From assembly GCA_964511655.1 (NCBI GenBank), contig CAZEGB010000001.1, forward strand, positions 7,087-71,086: 64,000 nt of DNA, written 5' to 3'. Made by a program: the position numbers and the translations under genes. The notes beneath the pieces are model-generated. The model did no database searches. It was not told the DNA's origin and worked only from the letters and a program-made list of their open reading frames with translations. Origin of the DNA: an uncultured Candidatus Saccharimonas sp. (GTDB taxonomy: Bacteria; Patescibacteriota; Saccharimonadia; Saccharimonadales; Saccharimonadaceae). This document shows positions 2,095-39,936 of this stretch, piece after piece. Every line of letters starts with the position of its first letter. The stretch's first letter is position 1.

Positions 2095-2123
2095 TTGTCA
2101 AATTCTGACAAATCTTTTATAAT
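2095..2123 (+). promoter_or_regulatory. sigma70-like promoter TTGTCA-N17-TATAAT with overlapping TTGTCA-N5-TGACAA palindrome
   Basis: TTGTCA at 2095-2100, a 17-nt spacer, then TATAAT at 2118-2123. The inverted repeat TTGTCAaattcTGACAA overlaps the -35 box. Confidence 0.55.
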
Positions 2124-2179
2124 ATTCGTGAGGCAAGTCAAGCACGGCTTCGACTTAATTTGTACCTCTTGAAAGGAGT

Positions 2180-2791
2180 TTGATTGTATTGAGGTTTATT
2201 TCTGATAAAAAAGCCCTCGCTGTTTTAATGAAATCCGGCGTCATTGGCGTCAAGTGTCACGGTGGCAGGGAATCTCAAGACGAAATCGATGTATGTGTCG
2301 ATAGGACTGCTTTACTTGTCGACCAAAAGAAAACTTCCAGATGGTGTGACGAAATTGCAAGAAGATTCGTAAAAGATGACGCGCGTATTATTGTAGGATT
2401 TGGTGAATCGGGTCTTGCATTGGCTCAATGGACAGCGTTTCATTTGATGAAGATGTACCAAAACGATACAAGCCGGCCCTCCAACGATGTGCTGAGCGTC
2501 ACTATGCAACCGAATACATTCGGAAAGTTGGGGTTTGGTCCAGGTGAAGCCAAATATGTACGCGGCAAAAGGTTACTATTTGTAACAGATTTTATCGTTG
2601 ATAGGGCATTCCCTATTCATGAAATCGTCAAATTAATTAAATCTGCCGGTGGAATTATCGTTGGCATAGGAGCTGTCCTAAGAATAGTCGATTTTATAGA
2701 GCAAGATTTAACGGAAATTCCAAAAATAGTATCGGTAGTTAATCATGAAACTATACGGAAGTACTGCAAACTGGCAAATCAATCAAATTAA
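2180..2791 (+). CDS. phosphoribosyltransferase-like protein with a degenerate PRPP loop; start codon uncertain
   Basis: Type I PRTase-like pattern LLFVTDFIVDRAFPIHEIVKLIKSAGGIIVGIGAVL. AAGGAG at 2173-2178 suggests the TTG at 2189 may be the real start. Confidence 0.45.
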   Translation: MIVLRFISDKKALAVLMKSGVIGVKCHGGRESQDEIDVCVDRTALLVDQKKTSRWCDEIARRFVKDDARIIVGFGESGLALAQWTAFHLMKMYQNDTSRPSNDVLSVTMQPNTFGKLGFGPGEAKYVRGKRLLFVTDFIVDRAFPIHEIVKLIKSAGGIIVGIGAVLRIVDFIEQDLTEIPKIVSVVNHETIRKYCKLANQSN

Positions 2792-2801
2792 TTTATGCCT
2801 C

Positions 2802-2843
2802 AAAGCGGCAGTAGTCTAATGACGAAAGCCGCTTTATTTTTTT
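2802..2843 (+). terminator. rho-independent terminator
   Basis: Hairpin AAAGCGGC...GCCGCTTT followed by ATTTTTTTT. Confidence 0.7.
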
Positions 2844-2848
2844 GCAAT

Positions 2849-2885
2849 TTAAAAACCACTTGTCTCACGAAGATTCAAGTGGTTT
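2849..2885 (-). terminator. rho-independent terminator of the minus-strand ORFan operon
   Basis: Hairpin AAACCACTTG...CAAGTGGTTT followed by a T-run on the minus strand. Confidence 0.6.
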
Positions 2886-2905
2886 GACATTTATAACGAG
2901 AATAA

Positions 2906-3319
2906 TTAGTGCGATACTGCAACTATTATGTTCCAAAATGAGCCGCCAAGGCCCAACTCATATGTGGCGGAAATTACTTCCGCATTATCTGCGGGCTGCA
3001 GAACAGAGCATCGTCCCCAGCAGGGGATAAGTTGATCGGCGGGTTCGAAACCCGGTTTAATTACAACTATCTTCTTTTCCTTCTTGGTACACTTAGCGGC
3101 TTTCGGGCTTTCGTAAAAATCGACTTCGTCGGACTTTGTCGGCGGACCGAACATTACTTCAACTTCCTCGACCATTTTGCCAGCCGATTTGGCAGTATTC
3201 AGAAATTTTCTGAGTCTTTCCTTACTACCAGCGTTAAGCTCTTTGACTATTTTGCAGGGTTCGACTCTACCGTCAGAATCGCGTTGGCCTTTTAGTTTGC
3301 ATGGTAATCCACAATTCAT
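2906..3319 (-). CDS. hypothetical protein (no family recognised)
   Basis: ATG preceded by GGAGGTTGG. It lies 22 nt downstream of the previous ORF on the same strand. The plus-strand ORFs overlapping it look like antisense shadows. Confidence 0.5.
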   Translation of the reverse strand: MNCGLPCKLKGQRDSDGRVEPCKIVKELNAGSKERLRKFLNTAKSAGKMVEEVEVMFGPPTKSDEVDFYESPKAAKCTKKEKKIVVIKPGFEPADQLIPCWGRCSVLQPADNAEVISATYELGLGGSFWNIIVAVSH

Positions 3320-3341
3320 CTAACCAACCTCCGTTCAAAAA

Positions 3342-3818
3342 TCATAAAAATGAAAGTTGTGCCGATCTAGCGGCGCCGGAACGAGTGATTTTGTGTGGAT
3401 CCACGCGATATGGGTGGAACTCTTCACTCGGTTTGAATGAATCTAGCTTCTCAAGAGCCGAGGGTGACAGTATCGCCACAATTCGTCTCACAAGGTCGAT
3501 CCCTACGTCTTTGCCGATATGTTCATGCATATCATCCCAGTTGTTAACAAGGCACAAATTTTTGAATGGCATCATAAAATAGATGTCGGTCAAACCTGGA
3601 GCGATTTCCAGCGTAAAGCGGGAACTGCACAGATTTATTTTTTGTGATGTAACAACGTTGCAAATACCGGGGATATTTTTGCCTTTAAACTGATGGAAGG
3701 TGTCGGAAAATGGATCGTGAAGAAACAAATGGGCGTAGTGATCAAAAACTCTGTCGACTAGACTAGTTAAAAACCAGCCTTCTCTTTCCTCTCCCAGCTC
3801 TTGTTTTACCAATTGCAC
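3342..3818 (-). CDS. hypothetical protein (no family recognised), GTG start
   Basis: AAGGAGAGG lies 5-6 nt upstream of the GTG at 3818. A promoter plus a long leader lie upstream. Confidence 0.5.
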   Translation of the reverse strand: MQLVKQELGEEREGWFLTSLVDRVFDHYAHLFLHDPFSDTFHQFKGKNIPGICNVVTSQKINLCSSRFTLEIAPGLTDIYFMMPFKNLCLVNNWDDMHEHIGKDVGIDLVRRIVAILSPSALEKLDSFKPSEEFHPYRVDPHKITRSGAARSAQLSFL

Positions 3819-4011
3819 ACTTAACCTCTCCTTTATAAATATATTTTGCGTCTCGTATTGAGAAGCGTATCAGATACCGTATAGATATCCAAAACGCTTC
3901 CCAATCGGGCAAATATAATTAATTAGAGCATTCTCGTATGTAAATGTACTGTCAGAATCGGAGCTTTTCTTTGGATAACACCGAAGAGGCTACACAACCC
4001 TAATGATTGCG

Positions 4012-4040
4012 ATTGTAATACATTAATGGTATTTAGTCAA
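4012..4040 (-). promoter_or_regulatory. sigma70-like promoter TTGACT-N17-TACAAT
   Basis: On the minus strand, TTGACT is at 4040-4035, followed by a 17-nt spacer and TACAAT at 4017-4012. A ~190-nt leader follows, containing the hairpin at 3862-3900. Confidence 0.55.
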
Positions 4041-4060
4041 GTTTCGTGATGAATGATAAG

Positions 4061-4091
4061 CAATAAAATACCCCTATGAAATTCATAGGGG
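4061..4091 (-). terminator. rho-independent terminator
   Basis: Palindrome CCCCTATGAAATTCATAGGGG followed by TATTTTATT on the minus strand, directly after the stop of the 4124-4687 ORF. Confidence 0.7.
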
Positions 4092-4123
4092 TAGAGGCAC
4101 AACACGAACAATTGATTAGTATT

Positions 4124-4687
4124 CTAGAACAAACTACACGCCGTACGCTGTTCATGCGTCCAGCCACCAAGCAGTTGAAAACCATTCCACATAAAGTAAC
4201 GCGGTTCAATAATGTTGCTACTGGTGCAGAATACGGATTTTGGCAATACAGCGACAATCTGTTCGCAGAAGTTTGTGCGCCAATCATTACCATTGGAAAT
4301 ATAACTTGAAGCAACTACTTTACCAGGGAAGGGTAGGTGTGACTGATCGGACAAATCACCGTGGTATTCATTGACGCAACCAAAAATGTTTCTTGCCTTG
4401 AACACGCAGAGTACTTGTTCGTAGGTGCTAGCCTGTTTTTTTGAGATAATTTTTAGTCTACCTCTCATGGTCGTACTGACGTCGCCGAATTTGATTCTGA
4501 CGGACCCCCTTTTATTCCACCTTTTATGTTGGTTTTCTGTCAATTTGACAGGGATAATGTTACGGGGGTTACGTAATTCTCCGCCAAGTATGATAACAGG
4601 TATCATAACATTTTGTTTTTTTAGCCAGAATTTTTCAACGATAACTCCGTCATGAACAACACCGTCTTTGATAGTAAAGATATGCAT
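4124..4687 (-). CDS. hypothetical protein (no family recognised)
   Basis: Strong SD AGGAGGA 6 nt before the ATG at 4687, and its own terminator downstream. Confidence 0.55.
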   Translation of the reverse strand: MHIFTIKDGVVHDGVIVEKFWLKKQNVMIPVIILGGELRNPRNIIPVKLTENQHKRWNKRGSVRIKFGDVSTTMRGRLKIISKKQASTYEQVLCVFKARNIFGCVNEYHGDLSDQSHLPFPGKVVASSYISNGNDWRTNFCEQIVAVLPKSVFCTSSNIIEPRYFMWNGFQLLGGWTHEQRTACSLF

Positions 4688-4910
4688 TCCAATTTCCTCC
4701 TATTATTGCCATAGGTTTAGATTTGCCTTTAAGGCAGCCTACGGCGTTATTTGCCGCATAATACGGCAAAAATGGGGTAACTAAATGGATATAATCAATA
4801 TTCGTTATTAAGGTGCCGGTCGGATTTTGAGCCGACAAAACAGTAAATTTGTTGACCGGCTTCACAAATCAGATGAAGTTGAGTATAGAATAATTGGTCA
4901 GCTTTGTCAA

Positions 4911-4927
4911 TGGTGATAGGCGCAGGA
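4911..4927 (-). other. tRNA 3'-end-like fragment (...CCTGCGCCTATCACCA), not part of an intact tRNA
   Basis: The minus-strand sequence TCCTGCGCCTATCACCA looks like a T-stem 3' strand, an acceptor 3' strand and NCCA. No matching 5' half lies nearby. Confidence 0.4.
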
Positions 4928-4928
4928 T

Positions 4929-5008
4929 AGCGGCCTTCGGCCTCCTTCGCTCATTCGCAAAAGAAAATACCTGCGGCGCTTTCTTTTGCTTCATTCGCTA
5001 CGCCGAAC
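4929..5008 (-). repeat. ~80-nt structured repeat, copy B
   Basis: Aligns with 15055-15133 over its whole length. It has a 10-bp stem GCAAAAGAAA/TTTCTTTTGC (4957-4966/4980-4989) and a terminal GGCC-N3-GGCC hairpin. Confidence 0.7.
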
Positions 5009-5068
5009 TCTACGACTTTTCAATAAATTGAAAAGCTTCGTAGGTTCGATACCTTTATCGCCAGATCA

Positions 5069-5106
5069 AATTAATATAACCGTCGAAAATGACGGTTATA
5101 TTAATT
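5069..5106 (-). terminator. 16-bp perfect hairpin immediately 3' of tRNA-Tyr (probable terminator of the tRNA cluster)
   Basis: AATTAATATAACCGTC-gaaaat-GACGGTTATATTAATT abuts the CCA end of tRNA-Tyr. Confidence 0.5.
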
Positions 5107-5192
5107 TGGTACAGGGGGTAGGATTCGAACCTACGAAGGCGAATGCCAACAGATTTACAGTCTGTCGTGTTTGACCGCTTCACTACCCCTGC
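5107..5192 (-). tRNA. tRNA-Tyr (GTA), class II with long variable arm, CCA encoded
   Basis: Manual cloverleaf: acceptor GCAGGGG/CCCCTGT, anticodon stem ACAGA/TCTGT, loop CTGTAAA, T-arm GTAGG-TTCGAAT-CCTAC. Confidence 0.9.
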
Positions 5193-5193
5193 G

Positions 5194-5270
5194 TGGAGCC
5201 GTCTCTCGGATTCGAACCGAGGACCTGATGCTTACAAAGCAACTGCTCTAACCAACTGAGCTAAGACGGC
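5194..5270 (-). tRNA. tRNA-Thr (TGT), CCA encoded
   Basis: Acceptor GCCGTCT/AGACGGC, D-stem GCTC/GAGC, anticodon loop TTTGTAA, T-arm CTCGG-TTCGAAT-CCGAG. Confidence 0.9.
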
Positions 5271-5328
5271 AGGTTGTTAAAGATACTTAATTATTCTATC
5301 TGATAAACAAACCAGATTCAAGTATCTA

Positions 5329-5404
5329 TGGAGCCGCGATCGGGATTTGAACCCGAGACCTCATCCTTACCATGGATGCGCTCTACCGACTGAGCTATCG
5401 CGGC
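5329..5404 (-). tRNA. tRNA-Thr (GGT), CCA encoded
   Basis: Acceptor GCCGCGA/TCGCGGC, anticodon stem CATCC/GGATG, loop ATGGTAA, T-arm TCGGG-TTCAAAT-CCCGA. Confidence 0.9.
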
Positions 5405-11527: not shown

Positions 11528-11602
11528 AGGGGCATAGTACAACGGTTAGTATAAAGGTCTCCAAAACCTTAGATCGTGGTTCGATTCCACGTGCCCCTGC
11601 CA
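11528..11602 (+). tRNA. tRNA-Trp (CCA), CCA end encoded
   Basis: Acceptor AGGGGCA/TGCCCCT, anticodon stem AAGGT/ACCTT, loop CTCCAAA, T-arm CGTGG-TTCGATT-CCACG. Confidence 0.9.
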
Positions 11603-11621
11603 AACAGGACAAAATGAAAAT

Positions 11622-11677
11622 AACAGATTAGAATCGGTTCGGCTTTTCCGAATACAATCTAATCTGTTTTGTTTTTG
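11622..11677 (+). terminator. hairpin plus T-run downstream of tRNA-Trp
   Basis: AACAGATTAGA...TCTAATCTGTT (11-bp arms) followed by TTGTTTTT. Confidence 0.6.
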
Positions 11678-11700
11678 TCAAATCCGCCTCTGTTAAAAAA

Positions 11701-11718
11701 GTTCGATTCCACGTGCCC
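11701..11718 (+). repeat. direct partial copy of the tRNA-Trp T-arm/acceptor (att-like remnant b)
   Basis: GTTCGATTCCACGTGCCC is identical to tRNA positions 11579-11596. Confidence 0.7.
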
Positions 11719-11770
11719 GTATTGCGTATTATATTAGAATGTTGAATACCATTATCAATTAGCCAAATAG

Positions 11771-14380
11771 TTATTGGATAGATTTCTTCGTTTTTTCCAC
11801 CTTGATTTTACGCCTGTGTCCTTTATTGAAAAAACGACGACCAACCCATTTATGTATCTCGACAACTGTTATTGGAACTATAATCGCGATGATAGTGGCG
11901 ATAGTTGCATCAACAGGTGATATTGGCGTTAGATGTAGTAAATGACTTGCGACACCTGACATTGCAACCCATTGCATACAGACCGCAATAATCAATCCAA
12001 AATAAAATGTCGGGCTAAATCGTCGAATCCGTTCCCAAAGTGATTCGTAATCGCTTCTATAACATAGAGCACTAGCCCATTGCATAACAACCATAATATG
12101 AAAGGCAACTGTCCGCGCGTAATCAATACCATTTCTTCCAATTTCGTTGATATATACCATTAACACTAGTACCGCCATAGTAAACGCTATTAGCACAATA
12201 CGAGATATCATAAACCGACTAAAGAGTGGGGCTGTTGGTGATTGTGGTGGCCATTTCATATTTCTTTTTTCTCCAGGTTCAAGACCAAGAGGAATTACCA
12301 TGCATGTGTCTGTAACAAGATTAACCCACAGTATTTGTACTGGCAGTAAAGGTACTGGGATACCAATAACTAGCGAGCCTAACGCTACCATAACTTCACC
12401 AGCATTGGTGGATAAAAGATATGCAACCATTCTTTTAATATTTGCATATATGGTACGGCCCTCGTGAACGGCACTAATAATTGATTTGAAATTATTATCA
12501 AGCAATATAATATTGCCGGCATCTTTTGCTATACTTGCACCGCTTCCCATCGCAACACCAACATGCGCACTTGAGAGCGCCGGAACGTCATTCACGCCAT
12601 CACCAGTCATTGCAACAATTTGACTATTTTTTAATACAGTTAATATTCTGTATTTATTTTCTGGGGTTACACGAGCAAATACGCGAACGTTATTGGCTAC
12701 AGACTCAAGCTCTTTATCGCTCATGCTATTCATTTTCCTACTATCAAACACTTGATCCTGATATTCGATAATCCCTAATTTTTTGCCGATATGAAATGCC
12801 GTTTCAAAATGGTCACCTGTAATCATACAAACTTTTATACCTGCCTGCTGGGCGGCAATAATCGCGCTTTTTGCTTCGGTTCGCAAAATATCTGCAATTG
12901 CAACAAATCCATCAAATATAAATTTTTTATGCGCCGATAAATCATTAAATGATAAGATTTCTTCGACATCTTCTTGATGCGCCAAGGCAATAACTCTAAA
13001 CCCGTTGCCAGCCATAGTATAGAGCATGCTCATAGCTTTTTCGTGCTGATCATGGGATAACCCGGATCTTGACAGGATAGTCTCTGGAGCACCCTTAACC
13101 CAAAGTATATTTTTACCATCTTCCTTAATGATATTTCCACTCATAGAATATTTTTGATCAAAAGGTAGTTTTAAAATTAAAACACCAGTTTTGCTGATTT
13201 CTTTTGATAAATGTACATAATCATTTAATGCAACGTCTAGGGGATCGTATGTTTTAGATTCAGAATGGTTCACGGATCTTTTGATGGCAAAAAGAATCTT
13301 TTGTATATCGCCACTCAGATTCCATACTTGCTGAACGGTTAGTTTATTTTCCGTAAGCGTACCGGTTTTGTCGGTTGCAATTACCGTCAAGCAACCGATA
13401 GTCTCTATAGCATTGACAGCTTTAACAAGTGCATTTTTCTTTGCCATTCGTCTCATTCCGATCACAAGAACAACAGTAATAGCAACAGCTAGGCTTTCGG
13501 GTACCGCACTGACGGATAGTGCTAGCACATACCGAATTCCTTCTGCAAAATCCATACCACGATACAACCCAAGCAACAAAGCGACAATTGCAATGACAGA
13601 GATCGCACGAATAATCATTGTGATTAACTTATCGATTTTGGTTTGAACCGGACTTTGCTGGGCTGGATTTACTGAAAGCGCGGCAATTTTTCCAAACTCA
13701 GTGCTATTTCCAGTTGAGACCACTAAAGCCCTTGCGTTACCGCCAACCACAAAAGAACCCTGAAAAATCATGTTCGATTGTTCATACAACTCTTTAACTT
13801 CGGAAAGTTCGCCAGTCTGTTTTTCAACTGGAAGCGATTCGCCTGTTAATTGAGACTCATCAACACGAAATGAATTCACGTTTAGCAAGCGTGCGTCTGC
13901 TGGTATTTTTTCGCCCTCATCTAGAATGATGATATCTCCCGGCACAAGTTGCGAAGCCTCAATTTTAACAACCAGCTTTTCCCTAAGGACATCAACCATT
14001 AATCTGTCGTGCTTTTGTAAAGACCTTAGAATACGTTCAGTTGAAAATCTCTGCACATAATAAATAGTGGCATTTGCAAACATAATGGCAAAAATAATTA
14101 CAGCATCCGTAACTGCGTTGTGCCATATACTGATAGCGGCAGCGAAAAAAAGCACTAGCATGAATATATTCATAAATGGTTCTATGATTTTTCGCCAAAA
14201 AGGCTCACCGTGAACAGTTACGACATTTTCACCATATTGAGCTAACCGTTCTAATGCTTCTGACTTCGAAAGTCCCGTTTCACTTGATAATAAATCAGAT
14301 AGGTTTTCTTGTATATTTTTTGAATAAAAAGACATTAGCATAATTATACCAAATTCGTAGGTTATTCTTTTTATATACAT
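11771..14380 (-). CDS. P-type cation-transporting ATPase (type II-like); start uncertain (ATG 14380, 14341 or 14335)
   Basis: TGES, PESL (PEGL equivalent), DKTGTLT, MITGDH, TGDGVNDVPAL, and about 10 TM segments. Confidence 0.85.
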   Translation of the reverse strand: MYIKRITYEFGIIMLMSFYSKNIQENLSDLLSSETGLSKSEALERLAQYGENVVTVHGEPFWRKIIEPFMNIFMLVLFFAAAISIWHNAVTDAVIIFAIMFANATIYYVQRFSTERILRSLQKHDRLMVDVLREKLVVKIEASQLVPGDIIILDEGEKIPADARLLNVNSFRVDESQLTGESLPVEKQTGELSEVKELYEQSNMIFQGSFVVGGNARALVVSTGNSTEFGKIAALSVNPAQQSPVQTKIDKLITMIIRAISVIAIVALLLGLYRGMDFAEGIRYVLALSVSAVPESLAVAITVVLVIGMRRMAKKNALVKAVNAIETIGCLTVIATDKTGTLTENKLTVQQVWNLSGDIQKILFAIKRSVNHSESKTYDPLDVALNDYVHLSKEISKTGVLILKLPFDQKYSMSGNIIKEDGKNILWVKGAPETILSRSGLSHDQHEKAMSMLYTMAGNGFRVIALAHQEDVEEILSFNDLSAHKKFIFDGFVAIADILRTEAKSAIIAAQQAGIKVCMITGDHFETAFHIGKKLGIIEYQDQVFDSRKMNSMSDKELESVANNVRVFARVTPENKYRILTVLKNSQIVAMTGDGVNDVPALSSAHVGVAMGSGASIAKDAGNIILLDNNFKSIISAVHEGRTIYANIKRMVAYLLSTNAGEVMVALGSLVIGIPVPLLPVQILWVNLVTDTCMVIPLGLEPGEKRNMKWPPQSPTAPLFSRFMISRIVLIAFTMAVLVLMVYINEIGRNGIDYARTVAFHIMVVMQWASALCYRSDYESLWERIRRFSPTFYFGLIIAVCMQWVAMSGVASHLLHLTPISPVDATIATIIAIIVPITVVEIHKWVGRRFFNKGHRRKIKVEKTKKSIQ

Positions 14381-14455
14381 TAACTAACAAGAAACAGCAC
14401 AATATAACTAGAGGCGGCATCAGTCTATACCAAATAATCAAGCCTTTATATATTA

Positions 14456-14902
14456 TCACTCTGCCCATTTTTTAAAGTTAATGAAGCGTAACATCTCTTC
14501 AGTTAAGTACTCAGACTGTACGCGGCGCATCAACTCACAACTATCGTTCTGAGATAAGATATTCAGGCTACCTTCCCAAAAAATATAGCTATCTATTATT
14601 GCTAATTTTCGATGATGCCCAACTGTCATAAATACTTCTATGCCAATATTCTGCATCTCTCCAATAGCCAACAACACCTGATCGCAAAGTGTGGGATTGT
14701 GTTCATCAAGCGGTTTTGTATTCACGACAACTCTTACGTTGCGTAATCGTAACTCACCGAAAATTGGTAGCAGCTGGTACATACGCTTTTTAGTAATAAA
14801 TGGACTTTCGATAATTACAGTGTTGCGTGCGTTATTTAAGTCTTTAATAAATGCCTTATAAAATGTATCTTGGTTGAATAGGGAAGAGTTATTCATTTTC
14901 AC
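14456..14902 (-). CDS. single-HKD phospholipase D superfamily protein (Nuc-like nuclease candidate)
   Basis: One HxK(x)4D motif, HHRKLAIID, followed by EGSLN. At 148 aa its size fits the homodimeric Nuc/BfiI-type fold. Confidence 0.7.
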   Translation of the reverse strand: MKMNNSSLFNQDTFYKAFIKDLNNARNTVIIESPFITKKRMYQLLPIFGELRLRNVRVVVNTKPLDEHNPTLCDQVLLAIGEMQNIGIEVFMTVGHHRKLAIIDSYIFWEGSLNILSQNDSCELMRRVQSEYLTEEMLRFINFKKWAE

Positions 14903-14953
14903 TCTCCTCAGAAAAACTAGTTATGCCACAAAAGATTCGGTAATCGTCCTGGA

Positions 14954-14965
14954 GCCCCTGCCAAA
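14954..14965 (+). repeat. tRNA-Trp 3'-end remnant c (GCCCCTGCCAAA)
   Basis: A 12-nt match to tRNA-Trp 11593-11604, followed by hairpin AAATAAGAAACTGA...TCAGTTTCTTATTT (14963-15001). Confidence 0.5.
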
Positions 14966-15046
14966 ATAAGAAACTGAGCCTCGTGTTCAGTTTCTTATTT
15001 TGTTGGTTCCCGCGGATCGAACCACGATCGACGAGCGAAGCGAGTC

Positions 15047-15153
15047 AGATCGTGGTTCGGCGTAGCGAATGAAGCGAAAGAAAGCACCGTAGGTATTTTC
15101 TTTCGCGAATGAGCGGAGAAGGCTTTAGCCGCTTTCCACGTGCCCCTGCCAAA
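15047..15153 (+). repeat. tRNA-Trp 3' fragment d, split in its T-loop by a 74-nt insert
   Basis: AGATCGTGGTTCG (15047-15059) and TTCCACGTGCCCCTGCCAAA (15134-15153) are contiguous in the intact tRNA apart from a single A (tRNA position 11584) lying between them. Here that A is replaced by a 74-nt insert. Confidence 0.75.
15055..15133 (+). repeat. ~80-nt structured repeat, copy A
   Basis: Stem GCGAAAGAAA (15074-15083) / TTTCTTTCGC (15097-15106) and a second hairpin GGC-TTTA-GCC. Aligns with 4929-5008 on the opposite strand. Confidence 0.7.
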
Positions 15154-15211
15154 ATGGTTATGCTAATAATAGACTTCACAATGAAGTCTATTATATTGTT
15201 ATACTGTAGGT

Positions 15212-15901
15212 ATGATAACTACTTTATTTACACTTATATCGCTTGACGGTAAGATATCGACTGGAGCTAGCGACGACCGCGATTTCGACAAAGACTTGCC
15301 AAATATCACAGGAGTTTCTGAAGGTCTACACCAATACTATGAATTAGAAGAAAAAACAGACTTATTTTCTTTCAATACAGGCAAGGTAATGGCTAAAGTC
15401 GGCTGGAATGACGTTAGAGAAAATATTTCAAAAATCCCTGTAACTTTTATAATTATAGATAACCAGCCGCATTTAACTAAATTTGGAGTTGAGAATCTAT
15501 TAAAGCGATGTAAAGAGCTAATAATAGTTACAACATATACATCACACCCCGCATTGAATATTGAGGACCAAAATATTGAAGTAATTCAATTTCAGGATAA
15601 GATTGATTTTGTTGAGTTATTTAACCAATTAGACAGTCGCGGCATCGAATGCATGACGATACAATCTGGCGGAGATTTGAACGCCACACTTCTACAGACT
15701 GGCCTTATTAATGAAATTTCTATTGTGATTGCACCTGTATTAATCGGTGGCAAAGATACACCAAGCTTGATTGGCGGACAATCAATACTTGAATTAGAGA
15801 ACCTAAAGAATATAAAAACACTAGAATTGTTAGATGTAGTGGAGCTTGACAACAATTATCTCCAATTACGCTATAAAGTTCTCAACCAAATTATATTGTA
15901 A
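15212..15901 (+). CDS. RibD C-terminal domain / dihydrofolate-reductase-like reductase family protein
   Basis: N-terminal LISLDGKISTG pattern and C-terminal QSGGDLNATLLQTGLINEISIVIAPVLIGG, typical of RibD_C. Confidence 0.65.
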   Translation: MITTLFTLISLDGKISTGASDDRDFDKDLPNITGVSEGLHQYYELEEKTDLFSFNTGKVMAKVGWNDVRENISKIPVTFIIIDNQPHLTKFGVENLLKRCKELIIVTTYTSHPALNIEDQNIEVIQFQDKIDFVELFNQLDSRGIECMTIQSGGDLNATLLQTGLINEISIVIAPVLIGGKDTPSLIGGQSILELENLKNIKTLELLDVVELDNNYLQLRYKVLNQIIL

Positions 15902-15992
15902 AAACCCTAGTATATTTGTGTCGTTGATATCAACATAATTAAAACAGTGTAACATATGCGCTGCCAAACTGATTATGTCTAAATAGACTTCA

Positions 15993-16544
15993 ATGTCAAG
16001 AGGTGAATCTTTTGTTATACTTAACAATATGAAACAATTGCTCATAATACACGAATCAGATATCTTTCCAGAAAGAGAAAACATTAGTTCTACAGATTTT
16101 ACGGAACGAAGTGCCGCACGGGCTGTAGTTTTAAATGACAAAAATCAAATAGCACTTCTGAAAGCCAACACATACAACTGTTATAAATTGCCTGGTGGTG
16201 GTGTCGAAACTGGAGAAGACATGAAGATTGCCTTGAAAAGAGAGTTACTAGAAGAAATTGGCTGTGCAGCTAATGTAATAGCTGAAATCGGAGAGATTAT
16301 TGAATATCGAGACAAACGGAAATTAAAACAGACTTCGCATTGTTATTTGGCCAAACAGGTTAGCGAGCAACAAATACCATCATTCACACAAAGTGAAATA
16401 GATGGAGGTTTCGAAGTTGTTTGGGCTGACAATATAGATGCAGCGATCGGATTACTTAAACAATATCGCCTACAAAATTATGATGACCTATTTATTCAAC
16501 GCAGAGACACTACTTTTCTTCAAACAGCAAAAGAATTACTTTAA
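15993..16544 (+). CDS. NUDIX hydrolase (alternative start ATG 16029)
   Basis: Nudix box GGGVETGEDMKIALKRELLEEIGC (GX5EX7REUXEEXGU). Confidence 0.8.
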   Translation: MSRGESFVILNNMKQLLIIHESDIFPERENISSTDFTERSAARAVVLNDKNQIALLKANTYNCYKLPGGGVETGEDMKIALKRELLEEIGCAANVIAEIGEIIEYRDKRKLKQTSHCYLAKQVSEQQIPSFTQSEIDGGFEVVWADNIDAAIGLLKQYRLQNYDDLFIQRRDTTFLQTAKELL

Positions 16545-16576
16545 GTTTACGATAGTTATATAATCGAAGCGTCGGA

Positions 16577-16630
16577 CATGTGCCCCTAGCTGCGACCATG
16601 GTTCGGCTCAGTAGCTGAAGCGAAAAAGTG
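16577..16630 (+). repeat. degenerate tRNA-Trp 3' remnant e plus truncated third copy of the structured repeat
   Basis: ACATGTGCCCCTAGC resembles CCACGTGCCCCTGCC. CATGGTTCGGCTCAGTAGCTGAAGCGAAAAAGTG resembles the first ~35 nt of copy A. Confidence 0.45.
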
Positions 16631-16672
16631 TTCCTGGATATTAATTATTTCTTACTTTATACTATGCATTAA

Positions 16673-39624: not shown

Positions 39625-39725
39625 ATCTAACCTAGTTTAGATTGAGACTAATTATCAGTAAAGCTCTATTCCGTCACAAATATTGACAACAGATAAGTAA
39701 TCTAGTAGTATATTCAAAGACATTA

Positions 39726-39860
39726 CCAAAGACAGTAGCTGTCGCAAGACTTAATTCGTTCGCCGTACGGCGAACGAAGCTACCGAGGAAAAATCTTATA
39801 TTTTTCGATGTTAGTCTTTGGCAGTGCGATTTGCCGTACGGCGAACCAAAGGTTTTTTTA
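39726..39860 (+). promoter_or_regulatory. rplJ (L10) leader with alternative structures ending in an intrinsic terminator (attenuator)
   Basis: GTCTTTGG (39814-39821) can pair either with CCAAAGAC (39726-39733) or with CCAAAGG (39846-39852), which is followed by TTTTTTT. Two GC hairpins sit at 39757-39776 and 39831-39845. Confidence 0.6.
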
Positions 39861-39936
39861 TTAACCTGCGGGATAAATCGCTAGCTGTCGAACATTTACA
39901 ATTTGGTCGAAAATATCAATCAAAGAAAGGATTTTT

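Follow-up and report, generated by a model that had tools for sequence, protein, structure and literature searches.

A conserved structured module framed by copies of the adjacent tRNA's T-arm downstream of Saccharibacterial tRNA genes

A stretch of 64,000 nucleotides from an uncultured Candidatus Saccharimonas sp. (hereafter the window) carries a hairpin-forming repeat within a tRNA-like T-loop, raising the question of what this element is and what its tie to tRNA genes signifies. The original prediction placed copy A at 15055-15133 on the plus strand and copy B at 4929-5008 on the minus strand. These positions proved right: a repeat search of the window returned arms 4940-5008 and 15055-15123, which are 69 nt long and 91% complementary (that is, 91% identity between the copies over 69 nt), and the 21-mer GTTCGGCGTAGCGAATGAAGC has exactly two occurrences in the window, where 0.01 would be expected. 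The compensatory differences described between A and B were seen again, namely a G:C to A:T change, a G-U substitution and a divergent 3′ mini-hairpin. Also confirmed was that copy A interrupts a tRNA-Trp T-loop, as its flanks of 13 nt and 18 nt (15047-15059 and 15134-15151) are those of tRNA-Trp and T-loop nucleotide 58 is replaced by a 74-nt insert. The different tRNA-like flank reported for copy B turned out to resemble tRNA-Tyr (5107-5192, minus strand); the direct copy upstream (5004-5015) matches that tRNA except for one additional A, and the downstream part is the same at 12 of 18 positions by manual count. Because the flanks of A and B are unrelated apart from these parts, each matching its own tRNA, the two loci are not a mere segmental duplication.

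Our analyses revealed that the ~75-nt repeat is the conserved core, here termed the module, of a non-coding composite element of ~150 nt. The original prediction saw the repeat but missed the composite around it, which includes an inverted T-arm copy (A: 15016-29; B: 5036-49) and a palindromic spacer. In the orientation of the tRNA, the order of the parts is L1, X′, S, X, module, Y. L1 derives from tRNA positions ~58-76 in inverted form, decayed and only loosely conserved. X′ repeats positions ~45-58 exactly but inverted; S is a palindromic spacer with no sequence relationship from one copy to the next; and X repeats positions ~45-57 in direct orientation. Y consists of the T-stem 3′ strand and a remnant of the acceptor strand, and the module occupies the place of T-loop nucleotide 58. 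The element lies ~90-103 nt past the tRNA gene, just after its terminator-like hairpin. Insertion into a tRNA remnant, as first proposed, describes the T-loop site correctly but leaves unexplained the inverted tRNA-matched arm and spacer hairpin found with 10 of 11 modules. The features at and around copy A are as follows:

11528..11602, plus strand: functional tRNA-Trp, source of the copy A flanks
14933..14963, plus strand: degenerate old tRNA-Trp 3′ end (~44-76), in which GCCCCTGCCA is the same as in the tRNA; collinear with the functional tRNA-Trp 3′ end of L032
14962..15002, no strand assigned: A/T-flanked hairpin before copy A, two-way terminator-like, with perfect 16-nt arms
15004..15015, plus strand: L1, decayed inverted copy of tRNA-Trp ~59-76, beginning TGG
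15016..15029, plus strand: X′, reverse complement (14/14) of tRNA-Trp 45-58 (variable region, T-stem 5′ strand and T-loop)
15030..15046, plus strand: S, palindromic, with apex GCGAAGC; X′-S-X hairpin z = −5.5
15047..15059, plus strand: X, identical (13/13) to tRNA-Trp 44-56, through T-loop TTCG
15060..15133, plus strand: module, 74 nt, covariance model score 85.2 bits; in order, a GCGTAGC mini-hairpin, the main hairpin between two tandem G·A internal loops, purine-rich GCGGAGAAGG and a variable 3′ mini-hairpin
15134..15151, plus strand: Y, matching (18/18) tRNA-Trp 58-75 (T-loop end, T-stem 3′ strand, acceptor 3′ strand and CCA)
15166..15194, plus strand: conserved hairpin after Y, predicted to be terminator-like
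16575..16627, plus strand: copy C, a decayed remnant with a tRNA-Trp-like 3′ fragment, X-like GACCATGGTTCG and a cut-off module

Those at copy B, in the same order, are as follows:

5107..5192, minus strand: functional tRNA-Tyr, source of the copy B flanks
5067..5108, no strand assigned: hairpin between tRNA-Tyr and copy B, with perfect 18-nt arms
5050..5063, minus strand: L1, with its own small hairpin and able to pair with the Y 3′ end
5036..5049, minus strand: X′, inverted tRNA-Tyr (14/14; T-arm 5′ half and T-loop)
5016..5035, minus strand: S, palindromic, unrelated to the copy A spacer
5004..5015, minus strand: X, direct copy of the tRNA-Tyr T-arm 5′ half with the additional A
4929..5003, minus strand: module, 75 nt, covariance model score 84.6 bits, 90% identity to A in the modelled core
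4911..4928, minus strand: Y, diverged tRNA-Tyr-like 3′ end, with T-stem strand pairing to X kept

The hairpin at 14962-15002 has ~80% identity, as estimated from the alignment, to the hairpin directly after tRNA-Trp in L032, and, of 19 positions in the L1 homologue in L032, ~13 agree with the reverse-complemented tRNA 3′ end. At the L051 tRNA-Tyr, which is without the element, a related hairpin and GATCT are still present, and the terminator hairpin is therefore disfavored as part of the element. Other identities failed on the anatomy itself. A tRNA that is split or carries an intron in its T-loop was rejected for want of a 5′ half, since upstream of X lie the spacer and inverted T-arm; neither ARAGORN nor Rfam found a tRNA at the element, and tRNA positions 1-44 are absent upstream of X. 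The ATGAAG... frame is not conserved, giving seven codons and a stop in A, remaining open in B and having a GTG start in L035, and peptide coding was rejected. An inverted triplication by replication template switching was rejected because the spacer contains no tRNA sequence.

Further copies were found beyond the window, a metagenome scan and a covariance model together yielding 11 distinct copies, and the known family members so far apparently all belong to Saccharibacteria. The claim that structure persists through sequence drift held across this set: 98.3% of main-hairpin cells are paired in the 11 distinct copies, compensatory changes occur in 8 of the 13 main-hairpin pairs, and 0 of 500 shuffles reached the observed covariation score. 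The internal-loop sequences are invariant, and G-U pairs 29-45 and 31-43 are conserved within subfamilies. A further match, L038 (23 bits), was rejected as a family member, being a purine-rich low-complexity region. The same layout recurs at all seven sites whose tRNA was identified, which cover five identities (Trp, Tyr twice, Pro twice, Lys and Ser). In every case, the flanks fit the local tRNA; T-loop placement is true of every copy found, with the module always between T-loop positions 57 and 59 and preceded in each by GTTC(G), GTTT(G) or GGTC. X′ is exact in 7/7 copies with a known tRNA and X slightly defective in three of these. The X′-S-X hairpin folds in 10/10 copies, with z from −4 to −11, despite spacers without common sequence, and the folds, read manually, show in most copies a bulge of 1-2 nt in the 3′ strand where S meets X. 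The T-stem 3′ strand of Y still pairs with X in at least 10 of 11 modules, and the acceptor part decays.

These data bear on one alternative, in which the elements are functionless leftovers, either att-site scars of integrated elements or products of local duplication. In its favor, L1 and the acceptor part of Y are decaying, and integration-type tRNA-Trp 3′ fragments are common downstream of tRNA-Trp (11701-11718, 14933-14963 and 15955-15995). However, modules from different tRNAs and metagenomes retain 71-95% identity and show compensatory changes, the spacer hairpins are retained without sequence conservation, and the flanks outside the tRNA-derived parts are unrelated, all of which speaks against it. 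This explanation was already disfavored, and we regard it as very improbable.

The distribution of the element is patchy. Module subfamilies show no correspondence to tRNA identity: copy A (Trp) is 94% identical to L041 (Pro), and the two tRNA-Pro copies share only 79% identity with each other. The element is absent at the orthologous tRNA sites of L032 (Tyr), L035 (Trp), L048, L051 and L054. At the two module-less sites seen in orthologous positions, in L032 and L054, the T-loops are short by 2-3 nt, which could be an excision footprint or ordinary decay. In L045, a single gene lies between two direct copies, and decayed copies occur at gene-cassette junctions both there and at the window remnant. 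Most copies have no cargo and neighbor core genes, among them comEC, RNase Y and tRNA-Thr. The decoupling of subfamily from tRNA, the element-less orthologous sites and the direct copies around one gene in L045 together point to mobility or turnover.

The window remnant corresponds to the third copy of the original prediction. Its similarity to the repeat stood up (about 16594-16625, 75% over 32 nt, beside tRNA-Trp-like fragments), but its membership in the family model did not; it is missing from the covariance model list even at E up to 10 and is thus best described as a decayed remnant. The octamer GGTTCGGC, also offered as evidence, is weak and near chance, with 5 occurrences against 1.5 expected, and the occurrence cited lies one position over, at 11636-11643, inside a terminator loop.

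Comparison with L032 shows that the old tRNA-Trp 3′ end, its hairpin and copy A have moved 3.3 kb from the functional tRNA-Trp, a displacement that this alignment would ascribe to a later ~3.3 kb insertion. A unit composed of Y and a hairpin (a pseudo 3′ end plus hairpin) recurs before RibD_C and NUDIX in the window, and in L054 it is found on either side of RibD_C. Gene content past tRNA-Trp and beside the tRNA-Tyr cluster is completely different between relatives, and GC is low, at 0.38, over 12-20 kb of the window. The displacement, the tRNA-Trp 3′ fragments, the repeated units, the variable gene content and the low GC suggest that the element resides in a recombination context.

The two strands of the element are not equivalent. 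The sense fold is more stable than the antisense fold in 10/10 units, and the structural signals, which comprise G-U/G-T pairs, tandem G·A pairs and C(GNA)G triloops, are strand specific. Specifically, N-C(GNA)G-N′ mini-hairpin motifs number 26 in sense and 2 in antisense, a density of 17 per kb compared with 0.76 per kb for the window as background (a 23-fold excess), and the motif count found no GNRA-type loops in the units. Among motifs known for unusual stability in single-stranded DNA, C(GNA)G triloops and tandem sheared G·A pairs of the (Py-GA-Pu)2 type are the classic cases, exemplified by d(GCGAAGC) and d(ATGAGCGAATA)2. The RNA form of the C(GNA)G triloop is much less stable, and stable RNA hairpins usually carry GNRA or UNCG tetraloops. 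A consistent orientation relative to replication was rejected, as A and B lie on opposite strands 10 kb apart with no GC-skew switch.

With regard to transcription, neither a consistent promoter between the terminator hairpin and the element nor a consistent terminator after it was found in the window scan or, at the other copies, by reading. The post-tRNA hairpin was weak in the terminator scan and was not called as a terminator, making read-through transcription from the tRNA plausible. At copy B, the strong predicted promoter of the next gene is downstream of the element, which therefore lies outside that gene's leader. This last observation bears on a cis-regulatory or insulating role, in which the element would act on its neighbors as a reinforced terminator, an attenuator or a T-box-like leader. 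Its location between the tRNA terminator hairpin and the next gene's promoter would suit such a role, as would its several stable hairpins. But the genes downstream of the copies are unrelated (RibD_C, ORFans, NUDIX, comEC and tRNA-Thr), T-box and other leader models gave no match, and the tRNA matching is left unexplained. We give a role of this kind only a slight chance.

The reading that we favor, tentatively and with somewhat less than even confidence, is that the element is a non-autonomous recombination or transposition module that works as a folded DNA single strand and makes use of tRNA T-arms. The same anatomy at several tRNAs, with local-tRNA flanks and a fixed T-loop position, argues for this, as do the covariation and the spacer hairpins kept without shared sequence. 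Strand specificity and C(GNA)G triloops, whose RNA version is less stable, point in the same direction, as do the evidence for mobility or turnover and the recombination context, and the lack of a consistent promoter or terminator in the scans described above is consistent with it. From these features we infer single-stranded DNA as the active form, its mobility and an enzyme acting in trans. In the mechanism that we envisage, X′:S:X would mimic the tRNA T-arm as a duplex at the foot of a hairpin of 20-25 bp. The crossover point (T-loop 57/58) would be occupied by the module, serving as a conserved scaffold for protein binding, and an enzyme encoded elsewhere would move or recombine the element at tRNA T-arms. 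These T-arm sites are also hotspots at which accessory genes gather in these genomes. Alternatively, within the same view, the element may be the attachment arm of a minimal integrative unit.

Several observations stand against a folded DNA module. Among the 40 window ORFs (Pfam) and beside the other copies, where neighbors were searched with Pfam, PHROGs and NCBIfam, there was no recombinase, integrase or transposase, and neither an excised form nor a clean empty site was seen. Most copies are cargo-free and there are only 11. How arms matching each new tRNA would be acquired is left unexplained. RNA is an equally good fit for the G·A and G-U pairs and for the conserved internal loops, and the mutually exclusive conserved pairings X′:X and X:Y look like an RNA switch.

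These points lead to the main competitor, a structured small RNA or tRNA 3′-trailer RNA transcribed in sense by read-through or from an unrecognized promoter, which we regard as a real possibility, albeit a lesser one. The module could then be an RNA domain that contains tandem G·A loops and binds protein, with tRNA-matched segments providing specificity for its own tRNA; X′ would be antisense to the T-arm, and X and Y would mimic it. Such an RNA could act as a sensor or decoy, as a chaperone or as a processing signal, switching between X′:X and X:Y. The orientation, which is always that of the tRNA, and the distance fixed at 90-103 nt fit an RNA well, as do the G-U pairs conserved within subfamilies, the invariant internal loops and the better-folding sense strand. 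The T-stem pairing of X and Y yields two mutually exclusive conserved helices, X′ remains exact where X does not, the post-tRNA hairpins were not called as terminators, and most copies sit cargo-free beside core genes; each of these favors an RNA as well. In contrast, the loops are C(GNA)G triloops instead of GNRA or UNCG tetraloops, no consistent promoter or terminator accompanies them, and there is no Rfam family even at E up to 10. The patchiness among close relatives, the subfamilies decoupled from tRNA identity and the decayed copies at gene-cassette junctions also count against an RNA. A retron-like antisense RNA, for which the order of inverted repeats, small hairpins and long hairpin was considered, was rejected because there is no reverse transcriptase and the sense strand is favored.

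The tRNA-matched segments could also serve as an address. In one such proposal, a module with its own guide steers a recombinase to the cognate tRNA gene and feeds a tRNA-anchored gene-cassette array, X′ complementing the top strand to the left of T-loop position 58 and Y, identical to the top strand, complementing the bottom strand to the right. The guides of an IS110 bridge RNA and the target mimic in CTX phage attP would be parallels. Target-matched segments in both orientations around a conserved scaffold are what this proposal calls for, and it is consistent with the cassette-like arrays with repeated junction units after tRNA-Trp and with the L045 gene between two copies. However, X′ is held in a perfect hairpin with X, Y is decayed in many copies, most copies adjoin no cassette, and no IS110-, Xer- or integron-type recombinase was seen among the window ORFs or copy neighbors; we consider this proposal unlikely. 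A further reading, to which we assign a low but not negligible probability, is a self-addressed module in which a conserved protein-binding scaffold at T-loop position 58, between antisense and sense copies of its own tRNA target, would guide a recombinase encoded elsewhere to that tRNA gene. Its working form would be either RNA or a folded single strand of DNA.

The module corresponds to no family of RNAs or mobile elements yet described. Rfam 15 at gathering thresholds returned only tRNAs and the L10 leader over the whole window, and at E up to 10 it gave only chance hairpin-level matches at both loci, with no match to the T-box model. No match to the element turned up in phage or plasmid records or in viral contigs, and nothing relevant came up in the literature, whether queried by topic or by sequence string. 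Among GTDB species representatives, the pattern GCGAATGARGC...GCGAATGAGC, which is probably too strict for half of the family, had 22 matches, all of them chance occurrences in coding sequence of unrelated phyla.

In Saccharibacteria and other CPR bacteria, genomes are tiny, recognized mobile elements are few and almost no non-coding RNAs have been described, and yet strain-level gene content varies sharply beside tRNA genes. A recombination module would mark how accessory genes are captured in these organisms and might open a way to engineer them site-specifically; an RNA would represent a new class of tRNA-specific RNA bearing both a mimic and an antisense of its tRNA. Were the self-addressed module to be true, Saccharibacterial tRNA genes would anchor gene capture of an integron-like kind that needs no integron integrase, in bacteria that are naturally competent and have very small genomes. 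On either reading, an unannotated family is now searchable by covariance model, and the element accounts for assemblies of these genomes breaking at tRNA genes.

Comparison with known systems shows partial likenesses. Similar to MITEs, the element is small, non-coding, multi-copy, patchy among relatives and hairpin-folding, with 11 distinct copies known and none at the orthologous sites listed above. Unlike MITEs, its inverted repeats (X′/X and L1/Y) copy the target tRNA and not the element ends. The module ends, GCGTAGCG... and ...GCT/GAT, are not mutual inverted repeats, and in place of a target-site duplication, X ends at 57 and Y starts at 58/59 with one nucleotide lost. Among tRNA-mimicking and tRNA-linked RNAs, the bacterial Y-RNA-like YrlA, tRNA 3′ external transcribed spacers and T-box leaders share with the element T-arm-like sequence and linkage to a tRNA unit, and the base of T-box stem I has similar GA-type internal loops. 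The element differs from these in its disrupted T-loop (A58 replaced), its antisense T-arm copy, its unrelated downstream genes and its lack of an Rfam match; the promoter after copy B likewise departs from the arrangement of a T-box leader. IS110 bridge RNAs and seekRNAs resemble the element in having segments that fit both target strands around a structured scaffold, whereas its guide-like segments are long (12-18 nt), one is locked in a hairpin, and no IS110-family (DEDD/RuvC-like plus Tnp) recombinase was found beside any copy.

Likeness is also seen with tRNA-targeting att sites, in which the 3′ part of the tRNA (about 45-76) is also duplicated downstream of the intact gene with a T-loop junction, a hotspot of variable genes and displaced 3′ ends that decay. 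In contrast to att sites, the element carries a structured 75-nt module in the duplicated T-loop and an additional inverted copy with a spacer hairpin, it lacks an integrase gene, and the stretch between the repeats is usually free of cargo. The block of identity to the tRNA 3′ end is broken in all copies by the 74-75 nt module at 57/58, the ~100 nt from tRNA-Tyr to copy B contain no gene, let alone an integrase-bearing insert between direct repeats, and no integrase was found in or near the islands. REP/REPIN and IS200/IS605-derived elements are likewise short, non-coding, hairpin-rich, strand-specific and intergenic just after genes, with no terminal inverted repeats or target duplication, a conserved GTAG near the hairpin, and, apparently, insertion by a short specific sequence, here the T-loop GTTC, GTTT or GGTC. 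Those elements are moved by HUH Y1 transposases or RAYTs, none of which was found in the 40 ORFs of the window (Pfam) or beside other copies, and their flanks are not tRNA-derived in both orientations.

Integron attC sites and the CTX-phage attP(+) provide a final comparison. The element differs from attC in its strongly sequence-conserved 75-nt module, and from both in that its arms copy the adjacent tRNA and most copies lack a cassette; no integron integrase (IntI) or other tyrosine recombinase was found near any copy. The sequences at the hairpin base, ATCGAAC / GTTCGGC, read manually, each have one mismatch to RYYYAAC / GTTRRRY. The element has hairpins with variable spacers and 1-2 nt bulges, and L045 and the window remnant are placed at gene junctions; most copies lie outside arrays. 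Like the element, attC and the CTX attP are imperfect palindromes whose stems vary in sequence while structure and bulged bases are kept, and these known systems are recognized as folded single strands. attC separates genes in cassette arrays and, as in the base of the element hairpin, has an ...AAC/GTT... motif; the CTX attP hairpin mimics its chromosomal target dif, as X′:X mimics the tRNA T-arm.

The repeat belongs to a real, structured and sequence-conserved element family, and both of its copies in the window sit where the original prediction had placed them. A repeat search returned arms at 4940-5008 and 15055-15123 that are 69 nt long and 91% complementary, and a 21-mer common to copy A (plus strand, by tRNA-Trp fragments) and copy B (minus strand, after tRNA-Tyr) occurs exactly twice in the window, versus 0.01 expected. 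Compensatory changes between the two copies can be read directly: G:C to A:T in the long stem, A-U to G-U near the loop, and a divergent 3′ mini-hairpin. The claim that copy A interrupts a tRNA-Trp T-loop also holds, as flanks of 13 nt (15047-15059) and 18 nt (15134-15151) are identical to tRNA-Trp and the 74-nt insert (15060-15133) replaces T-loop nucleotide 58. The supposed third copy near 16600 does show 75% identity over 32 nt; it is a decayed remnant, absent from the covariance-model list. The octamer at 11636, which also opens the repeat in copies A and C, is near chance (five occurrences versus 1.5 expected). The four tRNA genes of the window and the module, or ~75-nt conserved core, of copy B are as follows.

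5107-5404, minus strand: tRNA-Tyr, tRNA-Thr(UGU) and tRNA-Thr(GGU)
11528-11602, plus strand: tRNA-Trp
4929-5003, minus strand: module of copy B, 99 nt past tRNA-Tyr, with tRNA-Tyr-like flanks

Around the module, copies A and B have an identical order of parts, read in the tRNA direction.

Part 1: the tRNA; for copy A instead a degenerate old tRNA-Trp 3′ end (14933-14963)
Part 2: a hairpin with A/T flanks
Part 3: L1, tRNA positions ~59-76 in inverted orientation, loosely conserved and starting with TGG
Part 4: X′, an exact 14-nt inverted copy (A, 15016-29; B, 5036-49) that runs from the variable region through the T-stem 5′ strand and across most of the T-loop
Part 5: S, a palindromic spacer
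Part 6: X, the same 12-13 nt as in X′, in direct orientation
Part 7: the module
Part 8: Y, the remaining T-loop, the T-stem 3′ strand, the acceptor 3′ strand and CCA

Compared with shuffled sequence, whole units are far better folded (A, z = -5.1; B, z = -4.4). L051, a related contig without the element, has a hairpin after tRNA-Tyr similar to the one in the window, and the element proper therefore seems to start past that hairpin.

Names on homologues identify the source organism as a member of the Saccharibacteria. Scanning metagenomes with GCGTAGCGARTGAAG...AATGAGCG yielded 10 loci, nine of them true members that represent seven distinct copies, and synteny walking from the YajQ gene gave an additional copy in L035. 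A covariance model, the kind of check that the original prediction had proposed, was built from 10 copies and found one further copy, in L045; the sample for all readings is 11 distinct copies. Among GTDB species representatives the two-block pattern gave chance matches only, and viral contigs, phage records and plasmid records contained no copies. A 23-bit partial match to the module loop motifs in L038 (2520-2720), made of purine-rich low-complexity GAGCGA/GTGAGT units, lacks any tRNA context and is considered unrelated.

The family is bound to tRNA genes both physically and informationally. Wherever a contig includes the tRNA, the element lies 89-103 nt downstream in tRNA orientation, the module falls between T-loop positions 57 and 59 with T in place of A58, and X′ and X (and Y where preserved) match the local tRNA. 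The cognate tRNAs are Ser(GGA) in L037, Pro(UGG) in L041 and L046, Lys(UUU) in L042, Tyr in L035 and window copy B, and Trp in window copy A. Module subfamilies are independent of tRNA identity: copy A (Trp) is 94% identical to L041 (Pro), and the two tRNA-Pro modules, L041 and L046, are 79% identical, with spacers, L1 segments and mini-hairpins also unrelated. The element is absent after tRNA-Tyr in L032 and L051 and after tRNA-Trp in L035, L048, L051 and L054. Distribution and subfamily pattern together suggest turnover. In L045 (1-1137), a single gene is enclosed by modules in direct orientation at 50-130 and 892-970, which have similar Y parts and of which the second is without the X′-S hairpin; the 198-aa product of the gene has a hydrophobic segment at its N-terminus.

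In a model-based alignment of the 11 distinct copies, 98.3% of main-hairpin cells are paired, and 8 of the 13 pairs have changed on both sides, bearing out the view that structure is kept despite drift. None of 500 shuffles reached the observed covariation, and shifting the pairing partners lowered pairing to 37-64%. The element is neither a known RNA family nor the product of simple duplication. The L10/L12 genes are preceded by a ribosomal protein L10 leader (Rfam RF00557, 61.5 bits; 39708-39867, plus strand), an ordinary feature of the window.

Beside the main hairpin, both internal-loop strands read GCGAAUGA; antiparallel, they form two tandem G·A pairs with A-U/U-A between them and one bulged A, and the nucleotides of this G·A region are invariant. 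The N-C(GNA)G-N′ motif occurs 26 times in sense versus twice in antisense in ten units (17 per kb versus 0.76 per kb across the window), and these ten units contain no GNRA-type loops. X′-S-X forms a 20-25 bp hairpin in 10/10 canonical copies (z -4 to -11), the spacers have no sequence in common, and by our reading of the folds 1-2 nt bulge out of the 3′ strand at the S/X junction in most copies. Triloops of the d(GCGAAGC) type and (Py-GA-Pu)2 tandem G·A pairs are exceptionally stable in single-stranded DNA. Because the loops and internal loops are of these types, we tentatively favor a DNA-level module that would work as a folded single strand. The hairpin base would be a duplex mimic of the target's T-arm, and its apex would be variable with bulged bases, with a conserved scaffold at the crossover point.

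The chief alternative, a structured RNA produced by read-through from the tRNA, we regard as possible if rather doubtful. It draws on the fixed orientation and distance, the exact antisense segment X′ and the scarcity of cargo, which most copies lack. The sense fold is better than the antisense in 10/10 units. G-U pairs are frequent and conserved inside subfamilies, again in line with RNA. At least 10 of 11 modules retain a Y whose T-stem 3′ strand is able to pair with X, even with the acceptor part decayed; the mutually exclusive X′:X and X:Y pairings thus are both conserved, and such alternative pairings also speak for an RNA. The folded-DNA reading is favored because no consistent promoter or terminator was found at the element. 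A promoter-like site on the minus strand at 15190-15218 (TTATCA-17-TATAAT, 10/12 matches) is directed leftward into copy A and could drive antisense transcription as far as the two-way hairpin at 14962-15002; no counterpart was found at copy B.

The folded-DNA reading is also favored by the apparent turnover and by the location of the element in recombination hotspots rich in tRNA 3′ fragments. Window 14933-15029 aligns collinearly with L032 from the functional tRNA-Trp 3′ end through the hairpin and L1 to X′; after X′, L032 lacks S, X and module and resumes at CACGTGCCCCT. The ancestral order was therefore tRNA-Trp, hairpin, element; a later ~3.3 kb insertion in the window, of low GC and encoding a P-type ATPase and a small PLD-family protein, split the element from tRNA-Trp, whose old 3′ end was left to decay. 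GC falls to 0.38 over 12-20 kb. The PLD-family (PLDc_2) protein (148 aa, single-domain, Nuc-type nuclease size; 14456-14902, minus strand) adjoins copy A, probably by coincidence, since no such gene was found near the remaining copies.

Pseudo tRNA-Trp 3′ ends with a conserved hairpin unit (GCTGCCAAA..TTATG..AATAGACTTCA; window 11603-16650, L054 4260-5600) precede RibD_C and NUDIX genes in the window and flank RibD_C on both sides in L054, where the fragment at the orthologous upstream junction lacks the module and has a T-loop 2 nt short. Each relative examined has a wholly different set of genes after tRNA-Trp and beside the tRNA-Tyr cluster, and the genes that follow tRNA-Trp have the look of cassettes integrated one after another. 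A tRNA-Trp fragment, GTCAAATCCGCCTCTGTTAAAAAAGTTCGATTCCACGTGCCC, common to window 11674-11718 and L051 ~11540-11585, starts exactly at the T-stem/T-loop boundary (G53), as would be expected of an att scar with a T-loop crossover. In the region 2100-5404, the tRNA-Tyr/Thr(UGU)/Thr(GGU) cluster is inverted and reordered versus L032, L033 and L035. Between the TPR gene and this cluster lie ~2.9 kb with three ORFans and a weak phosphoribosyltransferase-like ORF (2180-4687); in L032 nothing intervenes. Short-read assemblies of the same and sister strains (L023, L025, L027, L028, L034) stop exactly at tRNA-Trp or tRNA-Tyr, consistent with repeats or strain heterogeneity there.

A Pfam scan of 40 window ORFs and an examination of the neighbors of other copies revealed no integrase, recombinase or transposase. 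A guide-bearing recombination system is improbable, and that the copies are inert scars, or a regulatory leader, is very unlikely. These readings, like the two above, leave unexplained how arms fitting a new tRNA are acquired, and for each of them no partner protein was found.

The element is a small structured non-coding repeat tied to recombination hotspots, of an unusual architecture that is undescribed in the literature searched. Some of its features are common with attC and CTX attP sites, REP/REPIN and IS200/IS605-derived elements, and others with att sites of tRNA-targeting integrative elements, MITEs and tRNA-mimicking RNAs; of every family open to testing, the element lacks one or more defining features. 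Its design, with a target mimic at the hairpin base, a variable bulged apex and a scaffold at the crossover, recalls both the CTX-phage attP hairpin and integron attC sites.
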